The notes under the pieces are model-generated. The model was not told where the DNA came from, searched no databases, and saw nothing but the letters and a program-made list of their open reading frames with translations. Positions 520 to 54,698 of a DNA stretch of 61,308 nt are shown here, in pieces. This stretch comes from a virus: the IMG/VR virus record IMGVR_UViG_3300010383_000012, one strand, 5' to 3'. The first letter of the stretch is position 1; each line of letters begins with the position of its first letter. Position numbers and translations under genes: made by a program.

Positions 520-1556
520 TGAGAGTCCTTTGCGCGAGCAGAGATCGCATCATGGATAGCTCGTAAATCGTCGTCAGACGGTTCTCGCATTAGCAGCAGC
601 ATCAGCGCGCAGGGGTTATCCGCGATTCGGCTAACGCCGTGAACGCGCGGCAGTGTCACCGCCTCGTCTGCTTGCTCGCTGGCGCGCGGAAGGTCATGAA
701 TCGCCTGCGTCCACCGCCGAACGAAGCTCTGCTCGACTTCAGGATCGGCGGCCATTGGCAGCGGCGAGTGCTTCGGCTTTGCCGCCTGCTTGGTGCGGAT
801 CTTCGCGACCGTCTCAGGCACGCTGATGCGCGCGAGCTCGGCCTCGCCGGCCGCGTGCATGTCCAGTCCGTTTGCAAGGCACAGCGCAGCGAGCGTCACC
901 ATCACGCCGCCCACCTCTTGGAACCTCTCACCTGTCGGCCGGGACCACGTGTAATCGACCAGCGCGTGCGCTTCCTCGCGGGTCATGCCGCATGCCTGCA
1001 CCAGCTCACCGGCTTCTTCGAAGAAGCGGTGATTGCGCTCCAACGTGTCCGCGGCGATCTCAGCGCCGAAGCACTCGAGCATCCACGGTTGGACTCGCGC
1101 TTGAAACGGAGCCCGTGAAACAGCCGATTGCTCAGCCAGTACGTCGCGAACCGCCGCAACGAAGTTTTTCACCGCATCGGGCTTGTGGCCTTCGCGGAAG
1201 TGGCGCCTGCCGATAGACACAATCCGCTCATCCGTCAAACCTGACTGCGGTGCCGCCGCGCGGCGGTAAAGCGGCGTCCAGAAGCTGCGGCGCGTGTCAC
1301 ACATGCGCGAGTCGCTATCCATGATCGGTCCTTCGAACCCGCCGTCGCTGCGATACCGAACCCACGCCACCGGTTTCGCCTCTTCAGTCGCCTCAGCGCT
1401 GGCGGTGTCGTGGGCTCGGAACTTGGCGGCGACGCGCAATGCCTCGTCGACTTTTTCCTGAGAGACCAGGCCGCCTGCGACGAGCATGCGCAGTGCAAAC
1501 GCTTCGCTCGACTCAGGCTTCAGATCGCTCTGCACGCTGGGTGTATTGGAGGTCAT
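516..1556 (-). CDS. Hypothetical protein with a MazG-like / dATP-dGTP pyrophosphohydrolase-like central domain
   Basis: 346 aa. The segment ERNHRFFEEAGELVQACGMTREEAHALVDYTWSRPTGERFQEVGGVMVTLAALCLANGLD resembles the EExxE...E/D helical MazG core. AAAGGA lies upstream of the ATG. Confidence 0.45.
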   Translation of the reverse strand: MTSNTPSVQSDLKPESSEAFALRMLVAGGLVSQEKVDEALRVAAKFRAHDTASAEATEEAKPVAWVRYRSDGGFEGPIMDSDSRMCDTRRSFWTPLYRRAAAPQSGLTDERIVSIGRRHFREGHKPDAVKNFVAAVRDVLAEQSAVSRAPFQARVQPWMLECFGAEIAADTLERNHRFFEEAGELVQACGMTREEAHALVDYTWSRPTGERFQEVGGVMVTLAALCLANGLDMHAAGEAELARISVPETVAKIRTKQAAKPKHSPLPMAADPEVEQSFVRRWTQAIHDLPRASEQADEAVTLPRVHGVSRIADNPCALMLLLMREPSDDDLRAIHDAISARAKDSQ

Positions 1557-1565
1557 GTCTGTCCT

Positions 1566-3509
1566 TTAGGCGGCGACGCCTGCCATCTGCTTTTCGTGAG
1601 TGAAATTCGCCCGGATCAGAGCGTCGGCCACATCCGGGCAAACGCTGTTACCGATCATGCGAACCTGCGAGGATTTCGAAAGCGGCTTGCCCTTGTGCAG
1701 CGGGTCCAGCACGTAGGAGTCCGGGAAGCCCTGCGCACGCGCGAGCTCGCGCGGCGTCAGCATGCGCATGCCGATGTCGACGATTACATAGTCCTCGCCT
1801 TGGATCGTCACCAGCCCGAAGCGGTCATGCGTCGGGATCGTGCCGAGCGGCATCCGCAGGCTCTGGCCGTCCTTGTCGTTGCCGTAGTACTTGATCAGAA
1901 ACGCCCGCACTTCGCCGACATGGCCGCCGCCGGCCGTAAGGGTCGGGATGGGCTCGCGCACGTCTTGGCCGAACTGGTTGTTGCGCAGCTTGAGCAGGGG
2001 CGATGTCACCACCGCTGTATCGGCCTTCGCCGTAACCGTTGCGGCTGGTTCGCTTACGTCGCGCGGCCGGGATTGTCCCGCGCGTCCGCCGCAGCCGACG
2101 AGCTGCGCAGTAACGATCGAGTGATGGTCGCTAGTTGTCACGGTGCCGGTCGGCACGTCTACGCCAGTTCCGACGACGCCGCCGTAGTGCTTCGCGAGAA
2201 ACGCGGAGACCACGGCGTGTTTGACCCCGCCGGCGACCGCAGTGCCGAGCGGCTTATCCAGTCCGGGCACGCGCGGCTCCTGCCCTTGGCGCTCGCCATA
2301 GCCGGTCTGGATGATCGTCGCGGATACGACTCCGAACTTGCTCCCTTGCGTCGTCACTGTATGCAACGGCGCGTCGACCTGTTGGCACGGTGTATCACCG
2401 AAGTTTTGCTTCACGATCGTTGCGGCGACGATCGCCTGCTCACCGCGGTGAGCGCCGGTCACAGTCGCGAGTGGCGCGTCGATGGCCGCCGCGCGATCGC
2501 TGCCGTGGTGCGTGACGTGCATCAAAGTCGGCGCGACGATGCCGAAGCGCGGCGCGCCAGCCATCACCGTGTGAAGAGGTTCGTCCGCAGCCTGTCCAGT
2601 ACTGTTCTCCGAAAACTTCACGATGAACGGATCTGCGCTGTTCACGACGAACTTCATGATGCCCTTGGCGATCCGCCGCAGCGTAGCGTCTTTCAGCGGC
2701 CGCGCGCGCTCGAAGATCGACGGGCACGGGATCGACCAGTCGATGCATTCGGCGGCGGTACGCCATGGCAGAAGCTTGCCGCTGCGTACCGCCTCGCTCT
2801 TCGGGTCGGCGTGCGTTGGCTGCGGCCAGACGATAGGTAGCCCGTCGCGACGCGCGAAGAAATACAGACGCTTGCGGATTGTCGGCGCGCCGAAGTCGCA
2901 CGCACGCAGCACACGCCAATCGGCCCGATAGCCGAGGCCCGCATAAAGTCGCTCCATAGGGAAATCAGCGCCGAGCGTCTCGAAGATTTCCTCTTCGTCG
3001 GGATGGCCCGGCTGCAGGCCGGTAGTGAGCGCCGCGATGAACGCGCGGAACGTGCGCCCCTTTTCAGCCTTTATCGGATGGCCGTCACCGTCGAGCGGCC
3101 CCCAGTCCAAAAATTCTTCGACATTCTCCAGCGCAATTGCACGCGGTGCCTGAAACGTCGCCCATTTCAACGTGATCCATGCGAGCCCGCGGATCTTCTG
3201 CTCGCGAGGCTTACCGCCTTTCGCCTTGCTGTGATGCTTGCAGTCGGGGCTGAACCACGCGAGCCCGATCGGCTGCTGCCCAGTCACGAATCCTGGATGG
3301 ACTGCGAACACATCCTCGGTATAGTGCGCGGTGGTCGGATGGTTGGCCGCGTGCATCGCGAGCGCCTCACCATCGTGGTTGATCGCAATATCGATGGCGC
3401 GCCCGAATGCGCGCTCAATGCCCGTGCTCGCGCCACCGCCGCCGGCGAAGTTGTCGACAATGAGTTCGCGGCCAAGGTCGAGCGGCAATGAGATCAGGTC
3501 ACGTTTCAT
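1566..3509 (-). CDS. dcm: DNA (cytosine-5)-methyltransferase with an expanded repeat-containing variable region
   Basis: 647 aa. Motif I is DNFAGGGGAS, motif IV is FSPDCKHHS, motif VI is ENVEEF, motif IX is LTPRELARAQGFPDSY and motif X is IGNSVCP. The start codon overlaps the RT stop (ATGA at 3506-3509). Confidence 0.9.
   Translation of the reverse strand: MKRDLISLPLDLGRELIVDNFAGGGGASTGIERAFGRAIDIAINHDGEALAMHAANHPTTAHYTEDVFAVHPGFVTGQQPIGLAWFSPDCKHHSKAKGGKPREQKIRGLAWITLKWATFQAPRAIALENVEEFLDWGPLDGDGHPIKAEKGRTFRAFIAALTTGLQPGHPDEEEIFETLGADFPMERLYAGLGYRADWRVLRACDFGAPTIRKRLYFFARRDGLPIVWPQPTHADPKSEAVRSGKLLPWRTAAECIDWSIPCPSIFERARPLKDATLRRIAKGIMKFVVNSADPFIVKFSENSTGQAADEPLHTVMAGAPRFGIVAPTLMHVTHHGSDRAAAIDAPLATVTGAHRGEQAIVAATIVKQNFGDTPCQQVDAPLHTVTTQGSKFGVVSATIIQTGYGERQGQEPRVPGLDKPLGTAVAGGVKHAVVSAFLAKHYGGVVGTGVDVPTGTVTTSDHHSIVTAQLVGCGGRAGQSRPRDVSEPAATVTAKADTAVVTSPLLKLRNNQFGQDVREPIPTLTAGGGHVGEVRAFLIKYYGNDKDGQSLRMPLGTIPTHDRFGLVTIQGEDYVIVDIGMRMLTPRELARAQGFPDSYVLDPLHKGKPLSKSSQVRMIGNSVCPDVADALIRANFTHEKQMAGVAA
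1785..2585 (-). repeat. About 8 tandem, roughly 33-aa degenerate coding repeats (TRD-like modules) inside the C5-MTase
   Basis: Repeated pattern [DE]xP(L)xT(V)T....(V)V...(L)....G. Examples: DEPLHTVMAGAPRFGIVAPTLM, DAPLATVTGAHRGEQAIVAATIV, DAPLHTVTTQGSKFGVVSATII, DKPLGTAVAGGVKHAVVSAFLA, DVPTGTVTTSDHHSIVTAQLV, SEPAATVTAKADTAVVTSPLL, REPIPTLTAGGGHVGEVRAFLI, RMPLGTIPTHDRFGLVTIQGE. Confidence 0.7.
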
Positions 3510-4711
3510 GCGTGCGTACCCTTATATGTTTTTGTTAGTGAACGGTCCACGGCGTGTCCGCGATCGCGAACCACGTTCGCCAACCGCGCGCGGTCGTGGT
3601 GACTGGACGGTGCCTGCCGCAGCAGACCGAAATAGCTATTCGCGAGCACATGCATGTCATCGGCCGGCGCGGCCGCGACGCGCTGCAAACCTTCTGAGGC
3701 AGTGCGGCGCCGCGTCGAGCGGCTCCACGGCTTGATCACCTGCCCGACGAAATCGACGCCGCGCGCGACCGGTTGCATGATGGTCTTGCGAGGATTCAGC
3801 CGCACGCCGAGCGCCGACGGCAGGAACGCGTCGATGTCGCGCAGCACGGCGTTCAGCCAGTCGGTGGACTCGTGCAGGAAGAGGAAGTCGTCCACATACC
3901 GGATGTAGTGCCGCGCGCCGATGACGTGCTTCGCGCGCTGGTCGAGCACGTCGAGGTAGACGTTGGCGAAGAACTGCGACGAGAGGTTGCCAATCGGCAG
4001 CCCAAGGTGCGCAGGTTGATTCATGAGGCGCTTGTGCGGCGGCACCAGCGCCATCAGCGATCGGTCTCCGCGCAGGTCGAAGTCCTCGCGCGGATCGTGG
4101 AACAGGACCGTCTCGGTCAGATCCATCCACCACGGCTCGCCGACCTTGCCCGCGAGCAGCTCGCGCAGAATCCGTTTGTCGATGCTGACGAAGAAATTCG
4201 CCAGATCGCACTTCAGGTAGTGCGCCGGACGACTCCAGTTTTGCGTGATGCTCCGGATCTTCGATTCAAGGCGTTGCGCCGCGTAGAGCGTTCCGCGTCC
4301 GACGATGCAAGCGCAACTGTCGGCGATGAACGAGCGCTCGAACCTTGGACCGATACGGTTGTAAAGCAGGTGATGCACGACGCGATCGCGGAAGTCAGCC
4401 GCCCACACCTCGCGCGGCTTCGGTCGCGTGACCACGAAACAGATCGACCGTCCCGGCGCGTAGCTTCCGTCCGTCAGTTCGTCGTAAAGGTGGCGAAGGT
4501 TACGCTCGAGGTTGGCCTCAAACGTCAGCGCGCTCGCGCTGTTGCGCTTCGTGCGCCGGCAGTCGAGGTACGCCTCGACGAGTTCGGTGAAGGTGAAATC
4601 AGCCTGCGCGTTCCAATCTGCGGACGGCACGCGCGCGGAGCGCGTTGGTCTTGTGGTTGTTGTTCTGGTTACCGTTGTTGAAGTTCTGATACCAGGCCCA
4701 ACCGCATCCAT
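3506..4711 (-). CDS. DGR reverse transcriptase (start uncertain: ATG 4711 reads through the TR; GTG 4630 is an alternative)
   Basis: RT motifs RPKPREVWAADFRDRVVHHLLY, the DGR-clade signature LPIGNLSSQFFANVYL and the catalytic RYVDDFLF. The ORF track extends to 4987, but that part overlaps avd and the TR. Confidence 0.9.
   Translation of the reverse strand: MDAVGPGIRTSTTVTRTTTTRPTRSARVPSADWNAQADFTFTELVEAYLDCRRTKRNSASALTFEANLERNLRHLYDELTDGSYAPGRSICFVVTRPKPREVWAADFRDRVVHHLLYNRIGPRFERSFIADSCACIVGRGTLYAAQRLESKIRSITQNWSRPAHYLKCDLANFFVSIDKRILRELLAGKVGEPWWMDLTETVLFHDPREDFDLRGDRSLMALVPPHKRLMNQPAHLGLPIGNLSSQFFANVYLDVLDQRAKHVIGARHYIRYVDDFLFLHESTDWLNAVLRDIDAFLPSALGVRLNPRKTIMQPVARGVDFVGQVIKPWSRSTRRRTASEGLQRVAAAPADDMHVLANSYFGLLRQAPSSHHDRARLANVVRDRGHAVDRSLTKTYKGTHA
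4615..4704 (-). repeat. DGR template repeat (TR), 90 nt
   Basis: The coding strand reads GGT TGG GCC TGG TAT CAG AAC TTC AAC AAC GGT AAC CAG AAC AAC AAC CAC AAG ACC AAC GCG CTC CGC GCG CGT GCC GTC CGC AGA TT, with 8 AAC codons. It is identical to both VRs except at adenines. Confidence 0.92.
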
Positions 4712-4847
4712 CGTGCTATCTACGTCGTCCGGCCGATCGCTCAGCGGGAAAACTGCGCCGGACCGTTCCGCACTCCGGCGGATGGTTTCCGTGGTGCGCA
4801 TGGCGGTGGCCTCGTGAGCCAGCGGCACGACCAGATTGAAAGATCGC

Positions 4848-5222
4848 TCAGTCATGGTGGCCTTGACCTCCATGAAGCGGGCGAATTGCGGCGCGACGCC
4901 ATCCAGTTGCCTGCTTGCCGATGCTCGTCGTGAGCTCGACCGCTTTGGCATAGCCGCCGCGAGAGATGAGGCGCTTGTCCATCGCAAGCCGGACCAGCAG
5001 CTCGATCACCTGAATACGCTCGAGCAATTCCGTCAAATGCACGGACTTGTCCTGTGCGACGTTCGCGCGGAACACGAGCACCGTTATTTCGATGCACTCG
5101 GCGCTGATCTTCTCGCCGATCGAACGCTTGAAATCGCGCTGCATGTTCTTGACGAGGTCGGTGACAGCGTCGAGAAGATCGTAGGCGACTTTGTAGATCG
5201 GCAGCTGTGTGTGGATGGCCAT
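4848..5222 (-). CDS. avd: DGR accessory variability determinant (Avd-like four-helix-bundle protein)
   Basis: 124 aa, basic and helical (LPIYKVAYDLLDAVTDLVKNM...ISAECIEITVLVFRAN...ERIQVIELLVRLAMDKRLIS). It sits between the target gene and the TR, as in canonical DGRs. Confidence 0.8.
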   Translation of the reverse strand: MAIHTQLPIYKVAYDLLDAVTDLVKNMQRDFKRSIGEKISAECIEITVLVFRANVAQDKSVHLTELLERIQVIELLVRLAMDKRLISRGGYAKAVELTTSIGKQATGWRRAAIRPLHGGQGHHD

Positions 5223-5239
5223 GCTGAGAAAGGACTAAA

Positions 5240-5698
5240 TTACTGAAGCACTAATCTGCGGACGGCACGCGCGCGGAGCGCGTAGGTCTTGAGGCCGTTG
5301 GTCTGGTGACCGCTGACGAAGCCCTGATACCAGGCCCAACCGGTCTCCTTCTCGTGCTGCTGGCACGACCAGTAGTAAGAGGACTGGAACTCGCCTTTCA
5401 GGTTGGCGAACAGCAGCGATTGCTCGCGCCGAGTCGGCAGCACACCGCCTTGCTCGCACGCCCACTTGACGGCCGCATGCCAGTCAACGCTTTCTGCCTC
5501 ACCGGGCAGCAGGATCAGGTGATGGCCAGCTTCGCCGTTCTCGCCGAGCACCAGACCTGCGTAGCGCTCGCCCGGCGCGAGGGTGATCGTCTGCGCATTC
5601 ACCACATACTCTGTCGTGGCGGCCTGCCTTTCGAACGCGGCGATCATTTCGCCGACCTTCGTGTGCTCGGCCTTGATGGCCTCAAGCGTGATCGTCAT
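5240..5698 (-). CDS. DGR variable protein 1 (DUF1566 / C-type-lectin-fold-like, 152 aa)
   Basis: Start MTITLEAIKAEH with GGAG upstream. Contains GGVLPTRREQSLLFANLKGEFQSSYYWSCQQ...GWAWYQGFVSGHQTNGLKTYALRARAVRRL. The VR covers the last roughly 30 codons. No signal peptide or TM segment is visible. Confidence 0.85.
   Translation of the reverse strand: MTITLEAIKAEHTKVGEMIAAFERQAATTEYVVNAQTITLAPGERYAGLVLGENGEAGHHLILLPGEAESVDWHAAVKWACEQGGVLPTRREQSLLFANLKGEFQSSYYWSCQQHEKETGWAWYQGFVSGHQTNGLKTYALRARAVRRLVLQ
5253..5342 (-). repeat. DGR variable repeat 1 (VR1)
   Basis: The 90-nt ungapped alignment to the TR has 11 mismatches, and every one falls where the TR coding strand has A. Confidence 0.92.
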
Positions 5699-5727
5699 TG
5701 CGAACGCTCCAGAAAATGGATGAATGA

Positions 5728-6087
5728 TTAAATGGACAATCTGCGGACGGCACGCGCGCGGAGCGCGTCGGTCTTGTGGTTGTCGTGCTGGCCACCGTAG
5801 CCGAAGTACTGACACCAGGCCCAACCGCTGTCGTCGGTATCCTCCTGATTGCTCCAGTACGCGGCCTCCTTGAACTGGTCGCGGCAGTTGGCAAACAGCA
5901 TTGCCTGCTCGACGCGCGTCGGCAGATCGCCGCCGATGCTCTTCGCCCATGCGAGCTGCTCGGACCACGACGCGCGCTCGTTGTCGCCCGGCAGCAGTAC
6001 GATGTGCTGCACGTCGCCGTTCTTGTCGCCGATCGCGCCCACATAAACTTCGCCTTCGGACAGCGGTGGAATCTGAAGTTGCTGCAT
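5728..6087 (-). CDS. DGR variable protein 2 (DUF1566 / C-type-lectin-fold-like, 119 aa)
   Basis: Start MQQLQIPPLSEG with GAGGAAA upstream. Contains GGDLPTRVEQAMLFANCRDQFKEAAYWSNQ...GWAWCQYFGYGGQHDNHKTDALRARAVRRL. It is a paralogue of variable protein 1, and the VR lies at its 3' end. Confidence 0.85.
   Translation of the reverse strand: MQQLQIPPLSEGEVYVGAIGDKNGDVQHIVLLPGDNERASWSEQLAWAKSIGGDLPTRVEQAMLFANCRDQFKEAAYWSNQEDTDDSGWAWCQYFGYGGQHDNHKTDALRARAVRRLSI
5738..5827 (-). repeat. DGR variable repeat 2 (VR2)
   Basis: The 90-nt ungapped alignment to the TR has 10 mismatches, all at TR adenines. The substitution pattern differs from VR1. Confidence 0.92.
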
Positions 6088-6099
6088 TCTGGTTTCCTC

Positions 6100-6130
6100 A
6101 AAAAATCGGGCGCTATGCGAGCCGCCCTTC
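6100..6130 (-). terminator. Intrinsic terminator/attenuator hairpin directly upstream of DGR target 2
   Basis: Minus strand: GGGCG-loop-CGCCC followed by a T6 run. It is a near copy of the hairpin at 6176..6204. Confidence 0.55.
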
Positions 6131-6175
6131 AAAACCAGCGCCTTGGACGGGACGCTGGGCGGGGGTAAATCGGTC

Positions 6176-6204
6176 AAAAAGCGGGCGCCGAACTGGCCGC
6201 CCTT
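6176..6204 (-). terminator. Intrinsic terminator/attenuator hairpin (first of a tandem pair)
   Basis: Minus strand: AAGGGCGGCCAGTTCGGCGCCCGCTTTTT. Confidence 0.55.
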
Positions 6205-6225
6205 AAAACACACGACGCGCTGATG

Positions 6226-6414
6226 TCAGCGTGCCGTACAGCCCAGTTGAGCAGCCAGCGCGCGGATGCGCTGGACAACGCGATCAGGGAGCGCGATCGC
6301 CTGGCCGCCGTGCAGCGCCGCGAACGCGGGCCGCAGGATCTCGCGGTCAGTCGGAGGGATGTCCGCGTGCTCGAGCCGCTTCAGCGCTTCGAATAGCGGT
6401 TCGTTCGTGGTCAT
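6226..6414 (-). CDS. Hypothetical protein (62 aa)
   Basis: ATG at 6414 overlaps the upstream stop (ATGA). The ORF track start at 6426 is an alternative. Confidence 0.45.
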   Translation of the reverse strand: MTTNEPLFEALKRLEHADIPPTDREILRPAFAALHGGQAIALPDRVVQRIRALAAQLGCTAR

Positions 6415-7187
6415 TGGGACCTCCACTCGGCACCGCGCACGACGCGCCCGACTGGTTCGAGCACGAGTACTTCCGACTCCTTCTCGGTGCGCACGAGCAG
6501 GTTCGCGCGGCGTTGCGCCTTCTCAAGCGTCCGATGGCGCTTCGGCGCTGCATAGCGACCGATGGTCACGAAAACCTGAGACGGCACGAATTCCGCATCC
6601 ACGAGCGTCAATTCGTCGATCTTCCGCTCGAGCGCGGCGTTGTTCGCGCGCAGTTTAGCGATGACCTCTTTTTGCGATCTAACTTCCGCGAGCGCCGCAT
6701 CTCGCTCGGCGGTGGTCTCACGATGCTTGTCGCATTCCGCGTTGTATAGGTCCCTGTATGAGCCCCAACACTGCACAGCGTTGTTGTGCTGTTCGCGCAG
6801 CTCGTCGCGCTCCCGGGTAACCGCCTGCAACTGCAAGGTGAGATCAAGCGCTTCCTCTACCGTGCTCAGCTCGGCATCGGTTACTTCCGGTTTCTCGACC
6901 TTCGGCGAGGCAGCAATTGCGGCTGACACGATCGCACCGACGAACGTCTTCCGTGGCGAAGTTGCGGTATCGGCGGTCGGCTCAACAACGTCCTTGCGGG
7001 TCAGCCAATAGTGGTATTCCGTGTGCCGCGGGCCGGTGCCTTCCAGCTTTCGCTCAAGGATGCCCTCGCTGACCATCGCGTTAAGCTCGCGGGACACGTG
7101 CAACCTGTCCATGCCGATACGCTCAGCGATCGTCTTTGCCGTCGACTGCATCACCGTGCCGAGGTACTTCTCGATCTGATCTCTCAC
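6411..7187 (-). CDS. Hypothetical protein with an N-terminal winged-helix-like domain and a central coiled coil
   Basis: 258 aa. TAKTIAERIGMDRLHVSRELNAMVSEGILER looks like a wHTH. A long heptad-like region follows (LQLQAVTRERDELREQ...AKLRANNAALERKIDEL). GTG start overlaps the upstream stop. Confidence 0.5.
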   Translation of the reverse strand: MRDQIEKYLGTVMQSTAKTIAERIGMDRLHVSRELNAMVSEGILERKLEGTGPRHTEYHYWLTRKDVVEPTADTATSPRKTFVGAIVSAAIAASPKVEKPEVTDAELSTVEEALDLTLQLQAVTRERDELREQHNNAVQCWGSYRDLYNAECDKHRETTAERDAALAEVRSQKEVIAKLRANNAALERKIDELTLVDAEFVPSQVFVTIGRYAAPKRHRTLEKAQRRANLLVRTEKESEVLVLEPVGRVVRGAEWRSQ

Positions 7188-7657
7188 GCTGCCTCCACAT
7201 AGCCGTACACCACCAGATCAGGCGCCGTTCCGTTGTTGAACACAGCGTCGACAATGCGCCCCATGTCCGCGCCTTCCGGCAACTTCCCATTCGCAACCCG
7301 AGCTACGGTCCGTTGCGCGATCTCCTGCGCGCGCTCACGAGTCAGGTCGATCCACACCCGCTGCCCAACTGCAGGCACGTGATCGGGTGCGTATTGGTCG
7401 CGTCCCCAATCGACGTGCCGCAAATTCGGCTCGCTGCACGACGGGCACTGAAGCCCGAACGCCGTTACGCCGTCGCGGCTGTTCCAGATCCGCTCCCGGT
7501 GACCGCACGCGCACGCGTACCACATCAGGCAGAAGGCCTCGGCGTGCTGATGGCCTTGCGGGGTCACGGCACGCACGTCCGGTGCAGCGGTGCCCGACGA
7601 CGCCTTTTTCTTTGCGGCGCGCTCCGCGGCGCGCCGGAGTTCACGCGTTTTGCTCAT
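7184..7657 (-). CDS. Hypothetical Cys-rich (zinc-ribbon-like) protein
   Basis: Start MSKTREL (ATGA overlap with the exonuclease stop). Contains CLMWYACACGH...LQCPSCS. Confidence 0.5.
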   Translation of the reverse strand: MSKTRELRRAAERAAKKKASSGTAAPDVRAVTPQGHQHAEAFCLMWYACACGHRERIWNSRDGVTAFGLQCPSCSEPNLRHVDWGRDQYAPDHVPAVGQRVWIDLTRERAQEIAQRTVARVANGKLPEGADMGRIVDAVFNNGTAPDLVVYGYVEAA

Positions 7658-8271
7658 GCCGCGGCCGCCAGATGCTTCTTGATGCCGTAATAGACGGCTT
7701 TGCAAGCCATCACATCGACGTTGGCGTTGTGTGCGCCTTCGAGCTTGCTGCCGGTAAAGAACTCGTATGCCTCTGCGAGGTTCGGCGACTTGGCGTGTTT
7801 ACGGCCGGCGGCGAGCATCTTTGCGGTAGGCGGAAGATTGATGATCTTCGTGCTCTTGCCTTGCGTGCAGAACGCCGGCGCGGACTTCCACGTGTCGTGG
7901 AAGGGATCGTCGTGATCGATCTCGCGGAAGTACTCGATGCGCAACATGCGGGCGTCGAACGATTCGTTGTGTCCCGCGCGCATCGCTGCGCGCTTCCACA
8001 TGTCGGTGAACTGACCGATCGCATCACGGCGGTCGATGCCTTCGGCCATCGCGCGCTCGGTCGTGATGCCGGTGAGCGCGGCCAGTTCGTCTGGAATCGT
8101 CCAGCCGTCCGGCTTGATCAGGACATCCATCGTCGCGATAACGTTGCCGTTGTGTTCGTCGCACAGCTCTGCGGCCAGTTGCGTGACGTAAGGCTGCGAC
8201 GGATCTTCCGAGGGCAACCCCCACTGCGGCAGGCCATTGGTTTCGGTGTCGTAGAAGAGAATGAGGTCCAT
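7654..8271 (-). CDS. DnaQ-like DEDDh 3'-5' exonuclease
   Basis: Exo I is FYDTETNG, Exo II is GHNESFDARML and Exo III is HNANVDVMAC. Confidence 0.85.
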   Translation of the reverse strand: MDLILFYDTETNGLPQWGLPSEDPSQPYVTQLAAELCDEHNGNVIATMDVLIKPDGWTIPDELAALTGITTERAMAEGIDRRDAIGQFTDMWKRAAMRAGHNESFDARMLRIEYFREIDHDDPFHDTWKSAPAFCTQGKSTKIINLPPTAKMLAAGRKHAKSPNLAEAYEFFTGSKLEGAHNANVDVMACKAVYYGIKKHLAAAA

Positions 8272-8301
8272 GCTGTGTCCAGGTGATGTGGGTTGAGCCG
8301 A

Positions 8302-10116
8302 TCAGGCCGCTTCGGCGACGGCTGCGCTGCCAATCAGTTCGCCCTGCTCGATCCAATGGGCCCGGGTAGTCGGAGGCAAGCCTTCCGGCAACTTCTTGAG
8401 GGTGCCGAACACGAGCGCCGTGCTGAGCTCTCCCTGGGTGGCCATGTCGTCGAGCAGCGCGAGCAGATCGCCTCGCCCCGTCAGGTCCAACACGTCGAAG
8501 CGATCGAACGACACGATGCGCGACTCGGAGATAACCGCGATCGTCAGCGCGAGCAGCGCATCCACGCGGTACTTTTCGGATTCACTGAGCAGCGCATACA
8601 GCCGGCCGCCGGCGCGGATCGTCATGTCCGTGCCGATTTCTGGAACCGCCCATTGCGCGAATGCGGCGAGCGAGCTCAGTTGGTGATTGATTGGCGCGAG
8701 CGCCTTGGCCAGCATGTCGCCGGGAATTCCGTCCGGTGCCAATGCGTCGGCGATCGCAAGCCATTGCGCGATGTCCGTGTGATATTCGGCAGCCTCTTTC
8801 GTCTTTCCAGCGGCGGCCTCGGCAGCGCGCCTCGCATTGCTGAGGCTGTCGAGCTCGCCGCGGAGCTTGTTGCGCTGCTCGGTTGCAGCCGTGACGCTGC
8901 GACGCGCGGCGTTGACATCTTCTTCGGTGACCTTCTCGACGTCGGCCTGCAGTTGCAGCGTCTTCGACGCCGCGGTGGCGGCCGCGAGGTCGCGTTCGTC
9001 GTTCTCGACGGCGCGCTTCATCAGATCACGAGCTTTCTTCAACTCCGGCAGCTTGGCGCGCGCCTCAGCGTCGCCGCCCGCGCCCGGCTCGCCGAACTGG
9101 TCGACGTACGCGCTGTACGCATTGGCCGCAGTGGAGAAGTCGTAGTTGTCCCAAGGCAGGATCGCGCCGGTGTCACGCTGCACGACACCTTCGGTGTCTG
9201 CGATGACCGCTGAGAACTCGCGAACCGCATTGGCGAGGTCGTGTACGAGCCCTTCGCGCGGCGCGTCGCCGGCGCGCTGCTGCGCGTCGAGCAAAGCCGC
9301 TTCAGCCGACGCGAGATGCTCCTTGTCGGTAGCCAGCTTCGCTTCAATGCGCGTGATGCTCTGCGCGAGGTCCGCGTTGTTCGCAGCGCTGGCCGTGGCC
9401 GCCGTGTAGGCGCGGTGTTTCTCCTGTACGACGCCGACCGCGGTGTTTGCTTCGGAAAGGCGCGCCTCAGCTGCCGTCAAAGCTTCCGTCGCGCTCGCGA
9501 GCTTCTTTGCGTCGAACGGCGGCACCTCCGCTTCCCAGCCGTCTGCCTTGTCTTTGCCCCACTGCTCGCCCGTCACCGTGCGCCACGCGCCCTTCGCTTC
9601 GCGCGCCTCGTCCTCGGCGAACTTGACCGCTGCGGGGAAGCCCGAGCGCAGCATCGGGATCACCTTGTCGATCTTCTTCGCGTCGCAGCCGCGCTCGAGC
9701 ATCAAGCCCTTCACAACTTCTGGCGTGGCACGCAAGCCGGTGAGGTCGAACAGCAATGTGCGGCGTTCGTCGGCCTTCAGACTGGCGAATCGCGACGGCT
9801 CCAGCACGTACGGAAGAGCAGCTGTGTACACCGCGAGGCCGACGTGCTTGCCATCGGGCAGCGTGAGGGACGCCGGGCCCGCGTCCGTCTCGATGGCGAC
9901 GATCGACTTCTTTGCGCCCTCGGTGATGATCGACGGGTAGTCTTTCTTGAGTGCAACGCGCGACACATCGCCGGTCAGCGCGGCGTTCACTGCCTCGCGA
10001 AGGCTGCTCTTGCCGGCGCCGTTCGGGCCCGCGAAGATGGTCACCGGCGTGTCGAGCTCGAGGTCGACGGCGCGTGCGCCGACGAAGTGCTTTGCGGAGA
10101 TGTGCTGGATGCGCAT
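8302..10116 (-). CDS. SMC/SbcC/Rad50-like AAA ATPase (recombination-associated)
   Basis: 604 aa. Walker A is FAGPNGAGKSS. A long Ala/Glu-rich coiled-coil middle follows. The C-terminal Walker B/D-loop is IVSFDRFDVLD. Confidence 0.75.
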   Translation of the reverse strand: MRIQHISAKHFVGARAVDLELDTPVTIFAGPNGAGKSSLREAVNAALTGDVSRVALKKDYPSIITEGAKKSIVAIETDAGPASLTLPDGKHVGLAVYTAALPYVLEPSRFASLKADERRTLLFDLTGLRATPEVVKGLMLERGCDAKKIDKVIPMLRSGFPAAVKFAEDEAREAKGAWRTVTGEQWGKDKADGWEAEVPPFDAKKLASATEALTAAEARLSEANTAVGVVQEKHRAYTAATASAANNADLAQSITRIEAKLATDKEHLASAEAALLDAQQRAGDAPREGLVHDLANAVREFSAVIADTEGVVQRDTGAILPWDNYDFSTAANAYSAYVDQFGEPGAGGDAEARAKLPELKKARDLMKRAVENDERDLAAATAASKTLQLQADVEKVTEEDVNAARRSVTAATEQRNKLRGELDSLSNARRAAEAAAGKTKEAAEYHTDIAQWLAIADALAPDGIPGDMLAKALAPINHQLSSLAAFAQWAVPEIGTDMTIRAGGRLYALLSESEKYRVDALLALTIAVISESRIVSFDRFDVLDLTGRGDLLALLDDMATQGELSTALVFGTLKKLPEGLPPTTRAHWIEQGELIGSAAVAEAA

Positions 10117-15185: not shown

Positions 15186-15488
15186 CTACCTGAGCGTCGT
15201 GAAGAAGGTGTACAGCTTGGTCGGTTCGCCGGGAATGCGCACGATGGCGTGAGATAGCATAGCCACGTCGACCAAAACCACTTGCTGGCCCTTCCGGAGC
15301 ATCACGCAACGGCCGGACGTGAATTCGCTTTCGAGAAGCTTGAACTCGTGGTTTGACAGATAGCTCCTGGCGTCAGAGAAGGCCTCTTCGCTTGTGCAGC
15401 CGAAGCTGTTGTCTGTGACCGTTTTTACGTTCTCAGCAAGGGCGAAGCTGGAAAACACGGCAAAGAGCGTTGCGATGAGCGCTCGCAT
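15186..15488 (-). CDS. Secreted small protein co-transcribed with the repressor (100 aa)
   Basis: Signal peptide MRALIATLFAVFSSFALA. Two Cys residues. Visibly lower GC than the flanks. The start shares one nucleotide with the cI stop. Confidence 0.6.
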   Translation of the reverse strand: MRALIATLFAVFSSFALAENVKTVTDNSFGCTSEEAFSDARSYLSNHEFKLLESEFTSGRCVMLRKGQQVVLVDVAMLSHAIVRIPGEPTKLYTFFTTLR

Positions 15489-16285
15489 CACCGCCGCCGA
15501 TATTTGCGGTGTTCGACCATGACGCCGATGATGTGAAGATGATCGCGCTCGCTATGCAGAATAGCGAAGTCGTCATTGAGCGGCACGAGCTCGAACACCA
15601 TCTCGCCGCGCTCGCTCGTTCCTCGCGGGCGGTATTTCTTAAAGGTCGCTTCCTCGTGCGAATTCTTCGCGACAACGAAGTCACCGGGCTGTGGGGAAAC
15701 GGCGGGGTCGATTATCACCTTGTCGCCTTCCTTGAACTCAGGCTCCATCGACGGCCCCTTGATGATCAGGCCAAAAGCGCCCGCTGATAGGTCCAAGTCC
15801 GTCGCGATAGTTTCAAATCCGTCGCCCAATGAAAATGGGTCTACTGCTTCTGTCATCATGCCGGCCTGCACGTAGCTAATTACGGGGATCTCTCGGTAAC
15901 CCACTGTCCCGCGCTCGAAATTCCCGTACGCAGTGGGCTTCTTTTCCGTAATGCTAGGCGCGTCACCGCCAGCCGATTTAACAATCAGGCTCCCGTTTGG
16001 TGCGCTGATCCGCTTATCAGCAGACGTTGAAATGTGTTGTGCGGCGAGCGCGCTTTCAATGCCAAGGTCGAAATAAAGGTTCGGGAGCCCGAGGGCTTTT
16101 TCCAGTTTGCGAGCCGCGCCTTCCTTGAACCCGGCTCCTCCGCGGTAATTGGGGTTGAGCATCTGCCTCAACCTGGTGGCGTCTGGCGCGTTGGGGTGCG
16201 CTCTGGCAAAGGCCGCGACATTGCCGTCAGCTTCCCTGTCTACCAACTCTTGAAGCCGCGCTCTGCGGTATGCATCGATATCCAT
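15488..16285 (-). CDS. cI: CI-type repressor (HTH plus S24 LexA-like autopeptidase)
   Basis: 265 aa. The catalytic Ser is in GPSMEPEF and the catalytic Lys in ATFKKY. It is divergent from the cro-like gene. Confidence 0.85.
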   Translation of the reverse strand: MDIDAYRRARLQELVDREADGNVAAFARAHPNAPDATRLRQMLNPNYRGGAGFKEGAARKLEKALGLPNLYFDLGIESALAAQHISTSADKRISAPNGSLIVKSAGGDAPSITEKKPTAYGNFERGTVGYREIPVISYVQAGMMTEAVDPFSLGDGFETIATDLDLSAGAFGLIIKGPSMEPEFKEGDKVIIDPAVSPQPGDFVVAKNSHEEATFKKYRPRGTSERGEMVFELVPLNDDFAILHSERDHLHIIGVMVEHRKYRRR

Positions 16286-46499: not shown

Positions 46500-47246
46500 A
46501 TGGCCACTGGCGATCAAAGCGACATTCTTTCGAGGCTCAAATCGTATGTGCCGCGAGGCTGGTTTGGTGACTGGAGCGAAGCGCCGATCATATCGGCAGT
46601 GCTAACTGGCATCGCGTCTGTATTCACGACGATCTACCTGCTGGTCATATTCATCAAGGCACAGGCGCGGCTGGACACGTCGACCGGCGGCTGGATCGAT
46701 TTGTGGGCTGCGGACTTCTTCGGCGGCAACCTGCCGCGCAAACCGAACGAGTCAGACGCGAGCTACATCGCGCGCATCAAGGTGGCGATCTTCCAGCCGC
46801 GCGCGACACGGCCCGCGATGATCAGCGTCCTGACGCAGCTCACCGGTCGCGAGCCAATCATTTTTGAGCCAGCGCGACCGCTAGACAGCGGTTGCCTTGG
46901 CGCGAACACGGGCGTCAACAGCTTTTGCGGCGTGGCTCGCATGGGCTCCATCGCGTGCCCATTCACGGCACTTATCACCGTGTACCGACCGGTCGTAAGC
47001 GGCGGCTCAGCAGGCGCTGCTTACTGCGACGCGATTCAGATTTCGGCAATCAGCACGCCTGCCTCACAAAGCTATACCGGCTCATTGGCTGACGAGATCT
47101 CTGCGGCTTCCGACGCGGACATTTACGCAGCCATCAACGCCACGAGACCGGTCGCCACAAACATCGGCGTGTGCATCACCAACTACGGTTTACGGCCGCC
47201 GCAGCTCGATTCAACCTTCATTCTCGATCAGTCCACGCTCTCATGA
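46500..47246 (+). CDS. Baseplate/tail-fibre attachment protein (gpI / Mu gp48 position)
   Basis: 248 aa, between the J-like gene and the fibre gene. Confidence 0.4.
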   Translation: MATGDQSDILSRLKSYVPRGWFGDWSEAPIISAVLTGIASVFTTIYLLVIFIKAQARLDTSTGGWIDLWAADFFGGNLPRKPNESDASYIARIKVAIFQPRATRPAMISVLTQLTGREPIIFEPARPLDSGCLGANTGVNSFCGVARMGSIACPFTALITVYRPVVSGGSAGAAYCDAIQISAISTPASQSYTGSLADEISAASDADIYAAINATRPVATNIGVCITNYGLRPPQLDSTFILDQSTLS

Positions 47247-49078
47247 AACGACTAATCTGTGCGCTGCTTTTGCTCGTCCACGCTGCCGCTGGCTATGCGC
47301 AGTTCACGACGGGACAGGTCCTTACCGCGGCACAGCTGAATTCCGCTTTGGCTGCGCCGACTATCGTGGGCGGCTCAATCAACGGCGCGCCTATCGGGCA
47401 AAACAATCCGAACAGCGGCGCGTTCACCACGCTCAATGTCTCAGGCTCCGCCACGTTTTCCGTGCCGCTCGGGACGACAAACGGTGGGACCGGGCTCGCG
47501 TCGATGCCTTCGCACGGCGTCGTCATAGGCGCAGGCTCGAGCTCGCCGACGTTCGCGATGCCGGGCACGGCCAATTACGCGATGCTGTCGAATGGTTCGA
47601 CGTCCGATCCTTCGTTCCAGCAGCTGACTGCGCCCATCGTCAGCTATACGCCGTCCGGCACTGGCGCGGCTGTAACGACCGTTAAGGCGTTCCTCGACTC
47701 GTTCCTGCAGTATCCGTCGGGGCAGTTCTATCAGAACGCCAACGCGAAAGTGAACCGGATCCGCGACCGTCTTTTCGTCGGCCCGGCCGCGGACAATCTG
47801 GGCACCAACGTTGCCTCGCAGCCCGATTGGCTGACGCAGTATCAGTTGGCGAAGGGCCGGACGTATGGTTACGTTCAGACGTCGCAGATGGCCGTGCTGA
47901 ATGGACCTGCATCACAGGACTCGCTTACCACCGCAGTATTCGGCGCTCAAACGAGCGGGCGTACAGCTTCAGGATCCCAAGTAATCGCAACTACTGGTGT
48001 TGGCGTCAATAACAATTCCGGCAACATCGGAGCATCTGGTAATCAGGCATGGGGAGGGTATTTCGAGGGATGGCGCGACACCGCCACAGCCGGCAATGGT
48101 GGCGCATATGGCATCGAGGCAGATTCAATAAATCTAGTCGGCGTGGCGGATACCGATCCGTACGTGCAATCTAGCGATCAAACTATTAGCGCTCAGCTTG
48201 CGTCAGGCGGAGAGATCGTCGGGGCGTTCGATTCTACTGCTGCGATTAACATTCAAAATAACGGCTCGGCCTATCGCAAAGGTATCGTATTCGGTTCGAA
48301 TTCGATCACGGGCGCGACAGGATCGAGTGGAACTGGCATCGCAATCGCGCTCGGCAAAGGGCATGAGCTTCAGTGGTATGGCGCGGCATCCACCCCTACG
48401 TCGAGCATTCTGGGCATCGGTACCACGACTGCGGGCGGAGTGTCGCAGCAGTTCAGCGACAACCTAGTGCAGTGGATGAATTCAGCGAACGCGCCGATCT
48501 TTGGCGCTTCTGGCACATCGGGTTCTGCCAACTACATCCTGGCATCCAATGCGACGTCGGGCAACGCACCGGCTTTTGCAGCGCAAGGGACTGATGCCAA
48601 CATCTCGATTGCCATCGCGGGAAAAGGAACTGGTGGGGCGCTGCTGCAAGGTGGAACGTCGGGGACCGCAGCGCCGGCTGGGTACATGGGTCAGGTCGTC
48701 GGTTCGGATGTGCCGGCGCCGGGATCGTCAGTTACATCCGCTGCCATTGCCAATGTAACCTCGGCGAGCGTTCCGGCTGGCAACTGGATGTGCTACGGAA
48801 ACGTCCAGCAAATCCCCGGTGCCAGCACGGCAATTGGTCAGAACGCTGCGTGGATCAGCACCACTTCAGCAGCGCTGCCCAGTGCCCTTGAAAACTCCGG
48901 ATATGCCAAGAGGGTGACAACGGCGAGCGCCACCGCGACCATCGAAGGCATGAACGTTGGTCCGGTCTTCTACGGCTTCACATCGAGCACGACGGTTTAT
49001 CTATCGTCTCAGGTGAACTACAGCAGCGGCACAACGGGCACGCAATACGGCGCTCTAAACTGCGTGCGATTCCATTGA
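47243..49078 (+). CDS. Tail fibre protein 1
   Basis: 611 aa. Gly/Ser/Thr/Ala-rich and follows the baseplate genes. The N-terminus MKRLICALLLLVHAAAGYAQ is signal-peptide-like. Confidence 0.6.
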   Translation: MKRLICALLLLVHAAAGYAQFTTGQVLTAAQLNSALAAPTIVGGSINGAPIGQNNPNSGAFTTLNVSGSATFSVPLGTTNGGTGLASMPSHGVVIGAGSSSPTFAMPGTANYAMLSNGSTSDPSFQQLTAPIVSYTPSGTGAAVTTVKAFLDSFLQYPSGQFYQNANAKVNRIRDRLFVGPAADNLGTNVASQPDWLTQYQLAKGRTYGYVQTSQMAVLNGPASQDSLTTAVFGAQTSGRTASGSQVIATTGVGVNNNSGNIGASGNQAWGGYFEGWRDTATAGNGGAYGIEADSINLVGVADTDPYVQSSDQTISAQLASGGEIVGAFDSTAAINIQNNGSAYRKGIVFGSNSITGATGSSGTGIAIALGKGHELQWYGAASTPTSSILGIGTTTAGGVSQQFSDNLVQWMNSANAPIFGASGTSGSANYILASNATSGNAPAFAAQGTDANISIAIAGKGTGGALLQGGTSGTAAPAGYMGQVVGSDVPAPGSSVTSAAIANVTSASVPAGNWMCYGNVQQIPGASTAIGQNAAWISTTSAALPSALENSGYAKRVTTASATATIEGMNVGPVFYGFTSSTTVYLSSQVNYSSGTTGTQYGALNCVRFH

Positions 49079-49082
49079 TTTT

Positions 49083-50171
49083 CTAAGCGCTTTGGGCGCG
49101 CTCGAGTGCGCGCTCAGATCCAGTCTCGCCAGAGTGCAATTCGCGGGGCCGTCGGCGCATGAACGGTTGCTCGATCAGCCTGTGTGCTACCTCGGCTATC
49201 AGCATGCAGCCGGGGAAAAATATCAGGGCCGACGCGACGGGGTCCGTCTGGAACAACCCGTGGTGCAACATCGTCTTCAGCATCGTCACGTTACATAGAT
49301 ATAGCGCGTAGCTCCGGGTGCTGATCCACTTAACGACCGGCACGTTATCTAATTTTTGGAAGCTCGCCCACAGCACGATCGCGGCGAACGACGCGGAAGC
49401 GACGCTCATCGTCAGCGTCCGCGTGAAAAAGTCTCCAAACTTTATGACGTAAAGCATGAGCAGTATCGTTACGTCGGCGCCGATGAATCCCAAGACGCCG
49501 ATTGAGCGAGCCCATTTTCTCAAATCGAAGGTGTGCGCCGCCCATGCGGCCAGGATGCCATAGGCGATTGCGTCGAGCCTGAAGACGACGACGCGTCGGA
49601 AATGCAAATCGAAGTCGAGGTTTGGGTTGTAAGCGATCATGCGCAATGCCATGGGCAGGACCATGAGGGTCAGCGCAATCAGAAGGATTCGTGTGCGAGG
49701 CTTAACTCCCGCGCATATCGCGAACAGCACAGGGAATAGCAGGTAGAACCATTCTTCGACGGCCAGCGACCAACTTTCCTCGAACCAATGGGGCATCGGC
49801 CATGCAAGGTTTTGCAGGAAGACGAGATAAGCCAAGCATTTCGCAGTCCAGCCGTGGTCTAGAGTGAGCCCCCAAAATGTGACAAACATCGAGACCAGGA
49901 AGAACGTCCAGTAGAGCGGCACCGTCCGCATCCAGCGACGAACATAGAAGTTTCGCGCGACCTTCCATGAAAAGCCATTCTCGAAGTCACGCAATATGAT
50001 GCCGCCGATCAGGAATCCGCTTAGCGCGAAAAACAGTACGACGCCAAGGTCACCGAGTACGTAGAAAATCCTCGGAGTTTCTTTCACCGCGCAGGACATG
50101 TAGTGGCCGGCAAGCACCGGCAGGATGGCGCACATGCGCACGGCATCCAGAGCTGAGTTTCTGTTTTTCAT
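49083..50171 (-). CDS. Acyltransferase-3 family membrane O-acyltransferase (OafA/YrhL-like)
   Basis: 362 aa and polytopic. N-terminus NSALDAVRMCAILPVLAGHY. Lower GC than the flanks and antisense to the late operon. Confidence 0.8.
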   Translation of the reverse strand: MKNRNSALDAVRMCAILPVLAGHYMSCAVKETPRIFYVLGDLGVVLFFALSGFLIGGIILRDFENGFSWKVARNFYVRRWMRTVPLYWTFFLVSMFVTFWGLTLDHGWTAKCLAYLVFLQNLAWPMPHWFEESWSLAVEEWFYLLFPVLFAICAGVKPRTRILLIALTLMVLPMALRMIAYNPNLDFDLHFRRVVVFRLDAIAYGILAAWAAHTFDLRKWARSIGVLGFIGADVTILLMLYVIKFGDFFTRTLTMSVASASFAAIVLWASFQKLDNVPVVKWISTRSYALYLCNVTMLKTMLHHGLFQTDPVASALIFFPGCMLIAEVAHRLIEQPFMRRRPRELHSGETGSERALERAQSA

Positions 50172-50339
50172 ACTTTGTTATGCAAGGCGGATATACCGAG
50201 CTTTCCGCCCCAACCAGTCGTCGAAAACGTCAGATATTACAGCGTTTATCAAATCCTTCCGCGATATTGCTCGCCGCTCGTCAAAGCCCATGCCGCTTTA
50301 GCGATCAGCGGGTTTCGACGCCCACGTCGAATAACAGTC

Positions 50340-50394
50340 AACCGCCTTCGTGCGGTTTTTTATTTTCTGAGCCCGCTCCGAGCGGGCTTTTTTT
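50340..50394 (+). terminator. Two tandem intrinsic terminators upstream of fibre gene 2
   Basis: AACCGC-CTTCGT-GCGGTT followed by TTTT, then AGCCCGC-TCCGA-GCGGGCT followed by TTTTTT. Confidence 0.7.
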
Positions 50395-50408
50395 CGTCCG
50401 GAGTGTTT

Positions 50409-54242: not shown

Positions 54243-54622
54243 GTAAAGCCAAGATAGTCCGCGACTCCGAAGGCCTGTTTTACGGCATCAAATGGTATTG
54301 CCCTGGCTGCGACGCGAACACGCGCGGTACCGGCTTGCATGTGCTGCCCGTGCACTGGCTACCGCCGGGTGAGAACCGTGAGTCTCCGCTCGTGGCAGGA
54401 AAGCCCCACTGGTCGTTTAACGGCAGTATGGAAGCGCCGGTGTTCGGTCCGAGCGTGCTTAGCAGCTGGGACGAATGGCAAGGCGACGGTGTCCCGCCGA
54501 AGAAACATGTCTGTCATTCGTTCGTCGGTTGCAACGGAGCTGCGCCCGGTCAAATCGTCTTTCTGGGTGATTGCACACACGATCTCGCCGGCAAGACCGT
54601 CGACCTGCCTGAAGTCCTCTAA
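54239..54622 (+). CDS. Hypothetical Cys/His-rich protein (DUF6527-like)
   Basis: CPGC...HVLPV...WSFNGSMEAPVFGPSV...CHSFVGCNGAAPGQIVFLGDCTHDLAG. Confidence 0.45.
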   Translation: MSKAKIVRDSEGLFYGIKWYCPGCDANTRGTGLHVLPVHWLPPGENRESPLVAGKPHWSFNGSMEAPVFGPSVLSSWDEWQGDGVPPKKHVCHSFVGCNGAAPGQIVFLGDCTHDLAGKTVDLPEVL

Positions 54623-54698
54623 GTCATTGATTTCCCTCCAAAGCTCGAATCCGAGTTTTGGCGACCAGCCGCCTCGAGCGGATTTTTCGTTTACTCCC

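Follow-up and report, generated by a model that had tools for sequence, protein, structure and literature searches.

What does a temperate phage gain if the proteins that it hypermutates are not its tail fibres but two tiny, soluble products of early genes with a lectin fold? The question is raised by positions 3506-6087 of the IMG/VR virus record IMGVR_UViG_3300010383_000012 (61,308 nucleotides; this whole stretch is the window in what follows), in which an earlier reading made from the letters alone, here called the sequence-only reading, had proposed a complete diversity-generating retroelement (DGR) with two targets. We find that this segment is a real and complete DGR in a temperate Paraburkholderia-type phage. 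Read along the minus strand, on which all its parts lie, the order is target 2 (T2, 6087-5728), target 1 (T1, 5698-5240), the accessory variability determinant gene avd (5222-4848), a structured RNA named RT-15, the template repeat (TR, 4704-4615) and a reverse transcriptase (RT) ending at 3506. The list of open reading frames (ORFs) and the minus-strand sequence agree with all coordinates first proposed. Every ORF is open and the catalytic YVDD is present, as expected from the proposal that the components are intact, and the two-target layout is borne out by the ORFs, the repeats, the RT, Avd and the lectin folds of the targets. We are thus confident that this is an intact DGR of the common 'target(s)-avd-TR-RT' architecture, which this temperate, myovirus-like phage carries in its leftward early/accessory arm.

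The strongest evidence comes from the template and variable repeats (VRs), which were compared by alignment and by anchored ungapped comparison. The TR is 90 nt long and contains 25 adenines and eight AAC codons in the target frame, and 24 of the 25 adenines occupy codon positions 1 or 2 of that frame. VR1 (5342-5253) and VR2 (5827-5738), also of 90 nt each, lie at the 3' ends of T1 and T2, and end 10-13 nt from the target stop codons (10 nt for VR2). VR1 differs from the TR at 11 positions and VR2 at 10, and every one of these mismatches is at a TR adenine (11/11, Fisher p = 1e-7; 10/10, Fisher p = 6e-7). The relationship between TR and VRs therefore persists in formal alignment, with mismatches exclusively at TR adenines. 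No adenine varies beyond offset 58 of 90, and the 3' portion is a GC-rich segment of ~32 nt (4615-4646 in the TR) that is the same in TR, VR1 and VR2; its 29-nt core has three exact occurrences in the window, with 0 expected from shuffles. Similarity ends directly after CAGATT, where the VR flanks diverge, and the TR-specific 3' flank GGAA (4 nt) is absent from both VRs. The shared segment and the TR-specific flank, the latter being the directionality difference, together resemble an initiation of mutagenic homing (IMH) element. The theoretical repertoire amounts to ~1.7e14 peptides per target. No third or remote VR was found in the window with a pattern allowing up to 3 mismatches, tblastn revealed no third lectin paralogue there, and no hairpin at the TR end folded better than shuffles.

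Could these repeats instead have been left behind by lectin paralogues that were duplicated or underwent gene conversion, beside a retron, Abi or DRT defence RT or a group II maturase? Weak generic RT-domain matches to DRT, retron and group II models in PADLOC and NCBIfam would suit such an origin, but they fall far under the curated NCBIfam cut-offs (group II, 76.7 vs 300; retron St85, 44.1 vs 235; Drt3a, 36.7 vs 200; Drt4, 23.8 vs 450; AbiA, 14.8 vs 250). The RT frame, open from 4987 to its stop at 3506, contains LPIGNLSSQFFANVYL and RYVDDFLF, and its motifs include LPIGNLSSQ (of the IGxxxSQ type) and YVDD. Family matches were obtained to Pfam RVT_1 (7e-13) and PHROG 1423 (9.6e-111). Among solved structures the best match is 8ub7_A (E 1.5e-32, 117 bits), which by tblastn is Brt of Bordetella phage BPP-1 itself (100% identity); a paper on 8UB7 was not found in the literature searched. 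The next matches, group II intron and retron RTs, have E-values of 1e-7 or worse (group II maturase, 1.4e-7), so that Brt leads by 25 orders of magnitude. By this comparison, which favours the DGR assignment of the sequence-only reading, the RT is best placed in the DGR clade, closest to Brt, and not with the group II, retron or Abi enzymes.

The gene adjacent to the repeats further argues against such an origin. The proposed avd (4848-5222) encodes 124 aa and matches the Avd family, with Pfam bAvd at 5.4e-13 (49.8 bits, above the gathering score of 40) and PHROG 3206, 'Avd protein of DGR', at 8.8e-30. The NCBIfam model DivGenRetAVD gave 47.7 bits, under its equivalog cut-off of 80, and a sequence search against the PDB returned nothing significant for Avd. 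Thus the RT, Avd and TR/VR checks by which the sequence-only reading could have failed all turned out in its favour. In addition, the TR copy sits outside any lectin ORF. A scan of species-representative genomes detected a related RT at 208 loci in at least 208 species, and detailed locus comparisons rest on the best 80 of these 208 loci. There, avd was found in 79/80, and 2,129 of 2,206 TR/VR mismatches are at TR adenines. Neither duplication nor gene conversion can yield this adenine-exclusive pattern, seen in 21/21 mismatches here and throughout the family. A non-DGR origin is effectively refuted, and we give it next to no credence.

The RT had been described as lying after the TR. Its end at 3506 stands, but its start calls for a correction. 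The RT is assigned to 3506-4711, with its conserved domain starting at ~4600 and with ATG 4801, ATG 4711 and GTG 4630 as start candidates. Neither here nor in 62 of 77 related loci does an ATG, GTG or TTG follow the TR ahead of the conserved RT N-terminus, and the RT reading frame therefore overlaps the TR. In some loci of non-Pseudomonas type the sole RT start is an ATG ~200 nt upstream, inside RT-15. Twelve Pseudomonas loci have an RT frame that is closed upstream; their first starts (ATG ATG) fall within the TR, which thus encodes the RT N-terminus in these loci. At its other end, the RT stop overlaps the ATG of a downstream methylase gene (ATGA, 3509-3506).

How unusual is this cassette? 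It shares ~75% nucleotide identity over 2.5 kb with those of Burkholderia phages Magia, vB_E192a and vB_PL1, and the rest of the genome is unrelated to these phages (~10% of the first 25 kb matches). The Magia record annotates an RT, an Avd-like protein and genes for a 'lectin fold... potential DGR target', and the announcement of that phage mentions a potential DGR with short targets (MRA 2021, PMC7883833). The sequence-only reading hence overrated the novelty of the element, which is of a type already annotated in Magia and fits the DUF1566/CLec2 short-target class (PMC5758913). DGRs of this class are widespread and already catalogued; the find is solid, not surprising. In this phage, Magia and vB_E192a together, 66/66 TR/VR mismatches are at adenines.

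The best 80 loci have 65-91% identity, the highest being that of Paraburkholderia rhynchosiae (91%), and span Burkholderiales, Pseudomonas, Rhodocyclales, Gallionella and others. In all of them the TR closely precedes the conserved RT domain. The number of VRs is two in 51 loci and three or four in 21, and the targets in related loci are uniformly small, in classes of ~120, 153 and 200 aa. The targets and Avd alone accompany the RT from locus to locus. Beyond them the flanks are mosaic, with a methylase after the RT in 17 loci and an integrase no more than 5 kb away in 9, and show no link to tail genes, for which reason conserved synteny beyond the cassette was rejected. Two loci carry four VRs, and in five a VR lies ~5 kb upstream; the remote targets of some relatives lie upstream of the RT by as much as 5.6 kb, with adenine-specific mismatches throughout. 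The MAG contig CBIHRA010000002.1 bears two cassette copies, 62 kb apart and with the same TR/VR statistics, which are either two related prophages or an assembly duplication.

Whether DGRs of this lineage still diversify their targets can be read from sibling phages. vB_E192a and vB_PL1 are colinear and show 31 differences in 10,101 bases. Their TRs are identical, and 29 of the 31 differences, each at a TR adenine, fall in the VRs (VR1, 16; VR2, 13; binomial p ~1e-48). This distribution is strong evidence that the DGR lineage is active, and the two siblings amount to a clean natural experiment in which both targets have been diversified together.

The gap of 143 nt between avd and TR is conserved more than the RT coding sequence and has no 3-nt periodicity. 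It is covered by a match to the Rfam structured RNA RF03018, 'RT-15' (4704-4886; 170.5 bits vs a gathering score of 82; full length, 1-192 of 192), which takes in the last 39 nt of avd and the whole gap and ends at the first TR base. RT-15 abuts the TR in 10/10 related loci tested (Magia, vB_E192a and 8 more), and RNAalifold on 64 loci gave compensatory changes in 15/21 pairs of the predicted helices. A first-guessed stem upstream of the TR (GTCCGGC/GCCGGAC) was replaced by the RT-15 model and the RNAalifold structure. RF03022 (Phage_DGR) had no match in the window, nor did 4400-6300 yield one when E-values up to 1 were allowed, and essentially no spacer separates the TR from the conserved RT domain. 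Since RT-15 fills the avd-TR gap and ends where the TR starts, the structured RNA here is 5' of the TR, whereas in BPP-1 it is 3'. RT-15 is thus a strong candidate for the DGR RNA scaffold of this lineage, with a topology inverted relative to BPP-1. The paper that described the RT motifs assigns RT-10 alone to a DGR and treats a DGR role of other RT motifs as speculation (Weinberg et al. 2017, PMC5737381); a paper linking RT-15 to a retroelement was not found in the literature searched.

RT-15 also appears to contact the TR directly. Its leader strand (4832-4841, UUUCAAUCUG) is single-stranded and complementary to the TR 3' end CAGAUU plus the four TR-specific flank bases GGAA (4611-4620, CAGAUUGGAA), with which a long-range helix is predicted (4832-4841 with 4620-4611). 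In 64 distinct loci, 75% of cells in this helix are paired vs 45% or less in slid controls, and covariation is 0.193 vs 0.097 or less, a value that 0/500 shuffles reach. One of its pairs is UA in 34 loci, GC in 18 and CG in 8. The leader-TR helix is an addition to the Rfam RT-15 model, which lacks such pairing.

These features suggest a sequence of events. The cassette would be transcribed leftward, and the RNA from the end of avd through the TR would fold into the multi-helix RT-15 scaffold, a structure backed by covariation. Next, the RT-15 leader would join the TR 3' end and flank in a helix, also shown by covariation, so that the TR is closed into a loop. The closed loop would put the cDNA start site beside the scaffold and present the TR 3' end to an RT-Avd complex, which would copy the TR into cDNA and misincorporate opposite adenines. 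The cDNA would replace VR1 and VR2, homing via the GC-rich 3' segment common to TR and VRs. The predicted outcome is that ~14 residues of the ligand-binding face vary in two paralogous lectin-fold proteins, both small and soluble, with up to ~1e14 variants.

What are these two proteins? T2 (119 aa) is a standalone protein with a C-type-lectin fold (DUF1566/Lcl_C-like), preceded by a GAGGAA Shine-Dalgarno sequence; a 161-aa form with a GTG start is unsupported, as its homologues have 117-121 aa. T1 (152 aa) has a conserved N-terminal helix (residues 5-26) followed by the lectin fold. The two are paralogues with 47% identity. Database searches gave >1,495 homologues of 117-121 aa for T2 and 1,172 of 151-154 aa, with full-length coverage, for T1, and both sets are widely named 'DUF1566 domain-containing'. 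Alignments of these homologues gave confident AlphaFold (AF2) models of T1 (pLDDT 91.9) and T2 (pLDDT 83.1), and both are C-type-lectin folds. The best Foldseek match of T1 is 8q4e_A, the C-terminal domain of Legionella Lcl (E 8.8e-5, TM 0.54-0.62), with tetranectin and collectin-like lectins among the others; for T2 the same chain is top or near-top (TM 0.60-0.65), along with C-type lectin domains. On these models, both targets have the fold of the Legionella Lcl C-terminal domain. A sequence search of T2 against the PDB found nothing significant, no signal peptide or lipobox could be read from the sequence of T1 or T2, and PADLOC on the targets, Avd and neighbours gave no defence-family matches beyond generic RT, methylase and ATPase domains.

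One possible role is tropism switching, in which T1 and T2 would be virion-associated receptor-binding adaptors, for example trimeric tips on the tail fibres encoded at 47171-49078 and 50175-52145, and the DGR would vary host range. Precedent comes from BPP-1, whose DGR varies host range through Mtd. To our knowledge, Mtd is the only experimentally characterised phage DGR target, and it is a receptor-binding protein. In line with such a role, T1 and T2 match positions 476-580 of PHROG 4245, a 583-position profile in which DUF1566-type lectin domains stand at the C-termini of long phage proteins. A tail fibre and a Peptidase_S74 protein are among their BFVD matches, Foldseek against the PDB returns the Bdellovibrio fibre tip Bd2740 among others, and the helix-plus-lectin layout of T1 is like that of trimeric tetranectin and collectins. 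However, in gene order the target genes stand over 40 kb from the tail module, within the arm that holds the repressor, recombination and integrase genes, and the mosaic flanks of the 80 related loci show no linkage to tail genes. Furthermore, T2 has merely ~12 residues before its lectin fold and no evident docking domain, and a lone T2 homologue in a Bordetella hinzii prophage remnant lies near the early-region gene Sipho_Gp157. We therefore regard tropism switching as possible but rather doubtful. As to that remnant itself, Bordetella hinzii-type contigs L095 (10001-10357) and L096 (7151-7507) hold the T2 homologue (66% identity) without RT, Avd or TR, in a prophage remnant of 2-3 kb beside HNH_3 and Sipho_Gp157 and between host housekeeping genes.

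Because the targets are encoded among early recombination, regulatory and methylase genes and have neither a signal peptide nor a fibre-attachment domain, we lean towards T1 and T2 being free binding proteins that act in the infected or lysogenic cell, and not determinants of tail-fibre tropism. A bolder combination joins this role to an unusual priming mechanism. The spacer RNA of BPP-1 reportedly supplies the cDNA primer. By analogy, RT-15 may be the equivalent of that spacer, clamping the TR 3' end, with priming from RNA upstream of the TR, as an inverted 5'-side self-priming RNA. The targets would at the same time form a library of non-tail intracellular binders and could be hypervariable inhibitors or decoys, for instance against host defence proteins or superinfecting phages; they are small and effector-less and encoded near a translationally coupled cytosine methylase. 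That both parts of this combination hold we consider unlikely.

The exact T1 sequence is recorded on a JGI contig of 61,308 bp, so the window is a complete contig. The genomic setting of the cassette is lambdoid according to PHROG annotation. The leftward (minus) arm runs from a CI-like repressor (15488-16285) through an exonuclease, RecT, an SbcC-like ATPase, a DnaQ-like exonuclease and a helix-turn-helix (HTH) regulator to the DGR, then to a C5 methylase of 647 aa and, across the contig ends, to more accessory genes and an integrase (57109-58239). The rightward arm carries helicase and replication genes, terminase, portal, sheath, tape measure, baseplate, two fibre genes and endolysin; the fibre genes are not DGR targets. 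From this gene order, the proposed location in the early-left operon is a reasonable suggestion. Shared transcription is less certain, as three tandem hairpins with U-tracts, resembling terminators, occupy the 140-nt gap before T2 (6100-6204, minus strand; -12.5, -13.8 and -9.8 kcal/mol). After each comes a stretch of 4-6 U; the middle hairpin alone beats shuffles (z -2.7), and the last is 10 nt from the ribosome-binding site of T2. A terminator scan picked up none of the three, which were found by manual folding. They may be terminators or attenuators that gate entry into the cassette, and at the corresponding position of Magia a terminator is annotated. A promoter scan found no sigma-70-like promoter on the minus strand in 1400-7400.

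Several observations weigh against the reading as an intact DGR with the mechanism and target role set out above. Co-transcription with the early operon is not assured, given the three hairpins before T2. The only other sample found of the same phage (L083, JGI 3300010226) has an identical VR2. No stable hairpin follows the VRs, the 46-nt folds there (-3.5 and -6.5 kcal/mol) being no better than shuffles; a GC-rich hairpin or cruciform downstream of the VR is found in only 34% of DGRs and is not universally defining (Wu et al. 2018, PMC5758913). The scores of the two targets with Pfam Lcl_C (PF07603), 20.5 and 25.1 bits, are under the gathering score of 34.9 (E-value 2.4e-5 for T2), while many of their homologues at 60-70% identity carry a precomputed PF07603 match and are named DUF1566 by NCBI. 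Comparison across the 77 loci yielded no conserved RT start codon. The part of RT-15 in priming we infer by analogy with the BPP-1 spacer RNA, the intracellular role of T1 and T2 is likewise inferred, and DUF1566 domains also cap long fibre-like phage proteins (PHROG 4245, BFVD).

Some of these points would also fit a silent copy, that is, an element that is structurally intact but no longer diversifies, with VR differences that are historical. The identical VR2 of L083, which differs from the window by one unrelated substitution in 1.6 kb, the three hairpins upstream of T2 and the lack of a sigma-70-like promoter in the scanned region would all suit this. L083 is probably from the same population, so that its VR identity is weak evidence. 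The ORFs are open and YVDD is intact, the TR is adenine-rich and both VRs differ from it at adenines alone, the RT-15 scaffold scores over its full length, and the relatives of ~75% identity and the same layout diversified both VRs between sibling phages; all of this argues against silence. Exact-pattern scans of viral and metagenome contigs for VR heterogeneity in this phage gave 9 loci, the closest of those compared being ~86% identical. We judge a silent copy to be improbable and retain the reading as an intact DGR.

A few neighbouring features were recorded in addition. L083 1351-1463 and window 7174-7363 have 99-100% identity on either side and a different, shorter segment in L083 within a 173-aa ORF (7184-7705), and the adjacent L083-aligned block (window 7363-8698) has 14 gap positions. 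The C5 cytosine methylase after the RT (1566-3509, minus strand) has its Pfam motifs split between residues ~16-260 and ~570-634. Between the two tail-fibre genes, on the opposite strand, lies an O-antigen or O-acetyltransferase gene (49083-50171, minus strand) that looks like a lysogenic-conversion moron. After the lysis genes, 54339-55283 (plus strand) encodes a 314-aa protein with an HNH-endonuclease match; Magia and vB_E192a likewise have HNH genes beside their lysis modules.

How does the element compare with known systems? Magia (MT701587), vB_E192a and vB_PL1 have the same order of HTH regulator, 120-aa target, 153-aa target, avd, RT-15, TR and RT, at the same site between recombination genes and integrase, and likewise show adenine-only TR/VR mismatches. 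Their TR and IMH sequences differ from those found here, and Magia has a third, remote target (gene 57) that is lacking in the window. Here and in vB_E192a the gene after the RT encodes a DNA methyltransferase, whereas Magia and vB_PL1 have other genes at that place; unlike in those phages, the methylase of the window is a C5 enzyme of 647 aa whose start overlaps the RT stop. The element is thus a textbook DGR of a known class, from a lineage that prophages of Burkholderiales, Pseudomonas and Rhodocyclales carry very often. We know of no member of this lineage that has been studied experimentally.

In the CLec2-DUF1566 class to which the Legionella DGR belongs (category 'd', Wu et al. 2018), the VR is in a DUF1566/Lcl_C-type lectin domain, as in T1 and T2. 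About half of CLec2-DUF1566 targets are short DUF1566-only proteins, and two targets are present in 13% of DGRs (PMC5758913). The Legionella target LdtA is an exported surface lipoprotein on an integrative and conjugative element (ICE), in contrast to the phage-encoded T1 and T2, which have no signal peptide or lipobox. If T1 and T2 do act inside the cell, the known uses of DGRs in viruses would be widened, and the phage would possess an adaptive binder system within its host cell.

The likeness to BPP-1 (mtd-avd-TR-brt) extends to the architecture of target, avd, TR and RT, to Brt as the closest solved RT, to adenine mutagenesis with AAC codons, to a VR at the C-terminus of a C-type-lectin fold and to a structured RNA adjoining the TR. 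The single target of BPP-1 is a tail-fibre protein of 381 aa encoded in the tail region, in contrast to the two early-arm targets of 119 and 152 aa in this phage. Both BPP-1 and Legionella need a GC hairpin after the VR, and here neither VR is followed by one. The overlap of the RT frame with the TR was noted as a difference from BPP-1. In BPP-1 the TR is directly after avd, and the RNA RF03022 Phage_DGR (formerly RT-10) lies 3' of the TR and before brt, where the TR-brt spacer scores 104.7 bits with that model; in the window RT-15 takes its place, 5' of the TR. RT-15 (RF03018) was described as a motif found beside RT genes (PMC5737381), and here it is placed exactly, from the 3' end of avd to the first TR base. 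This orphan RNA would thereby gain a concrete function together with its exact placement, in a topology unlike that of the only mechanistically understood DGR. If 5'-side priming by RT-15 is correct, DGRs would have two solutions to self-priming, the second with an inverted topology.

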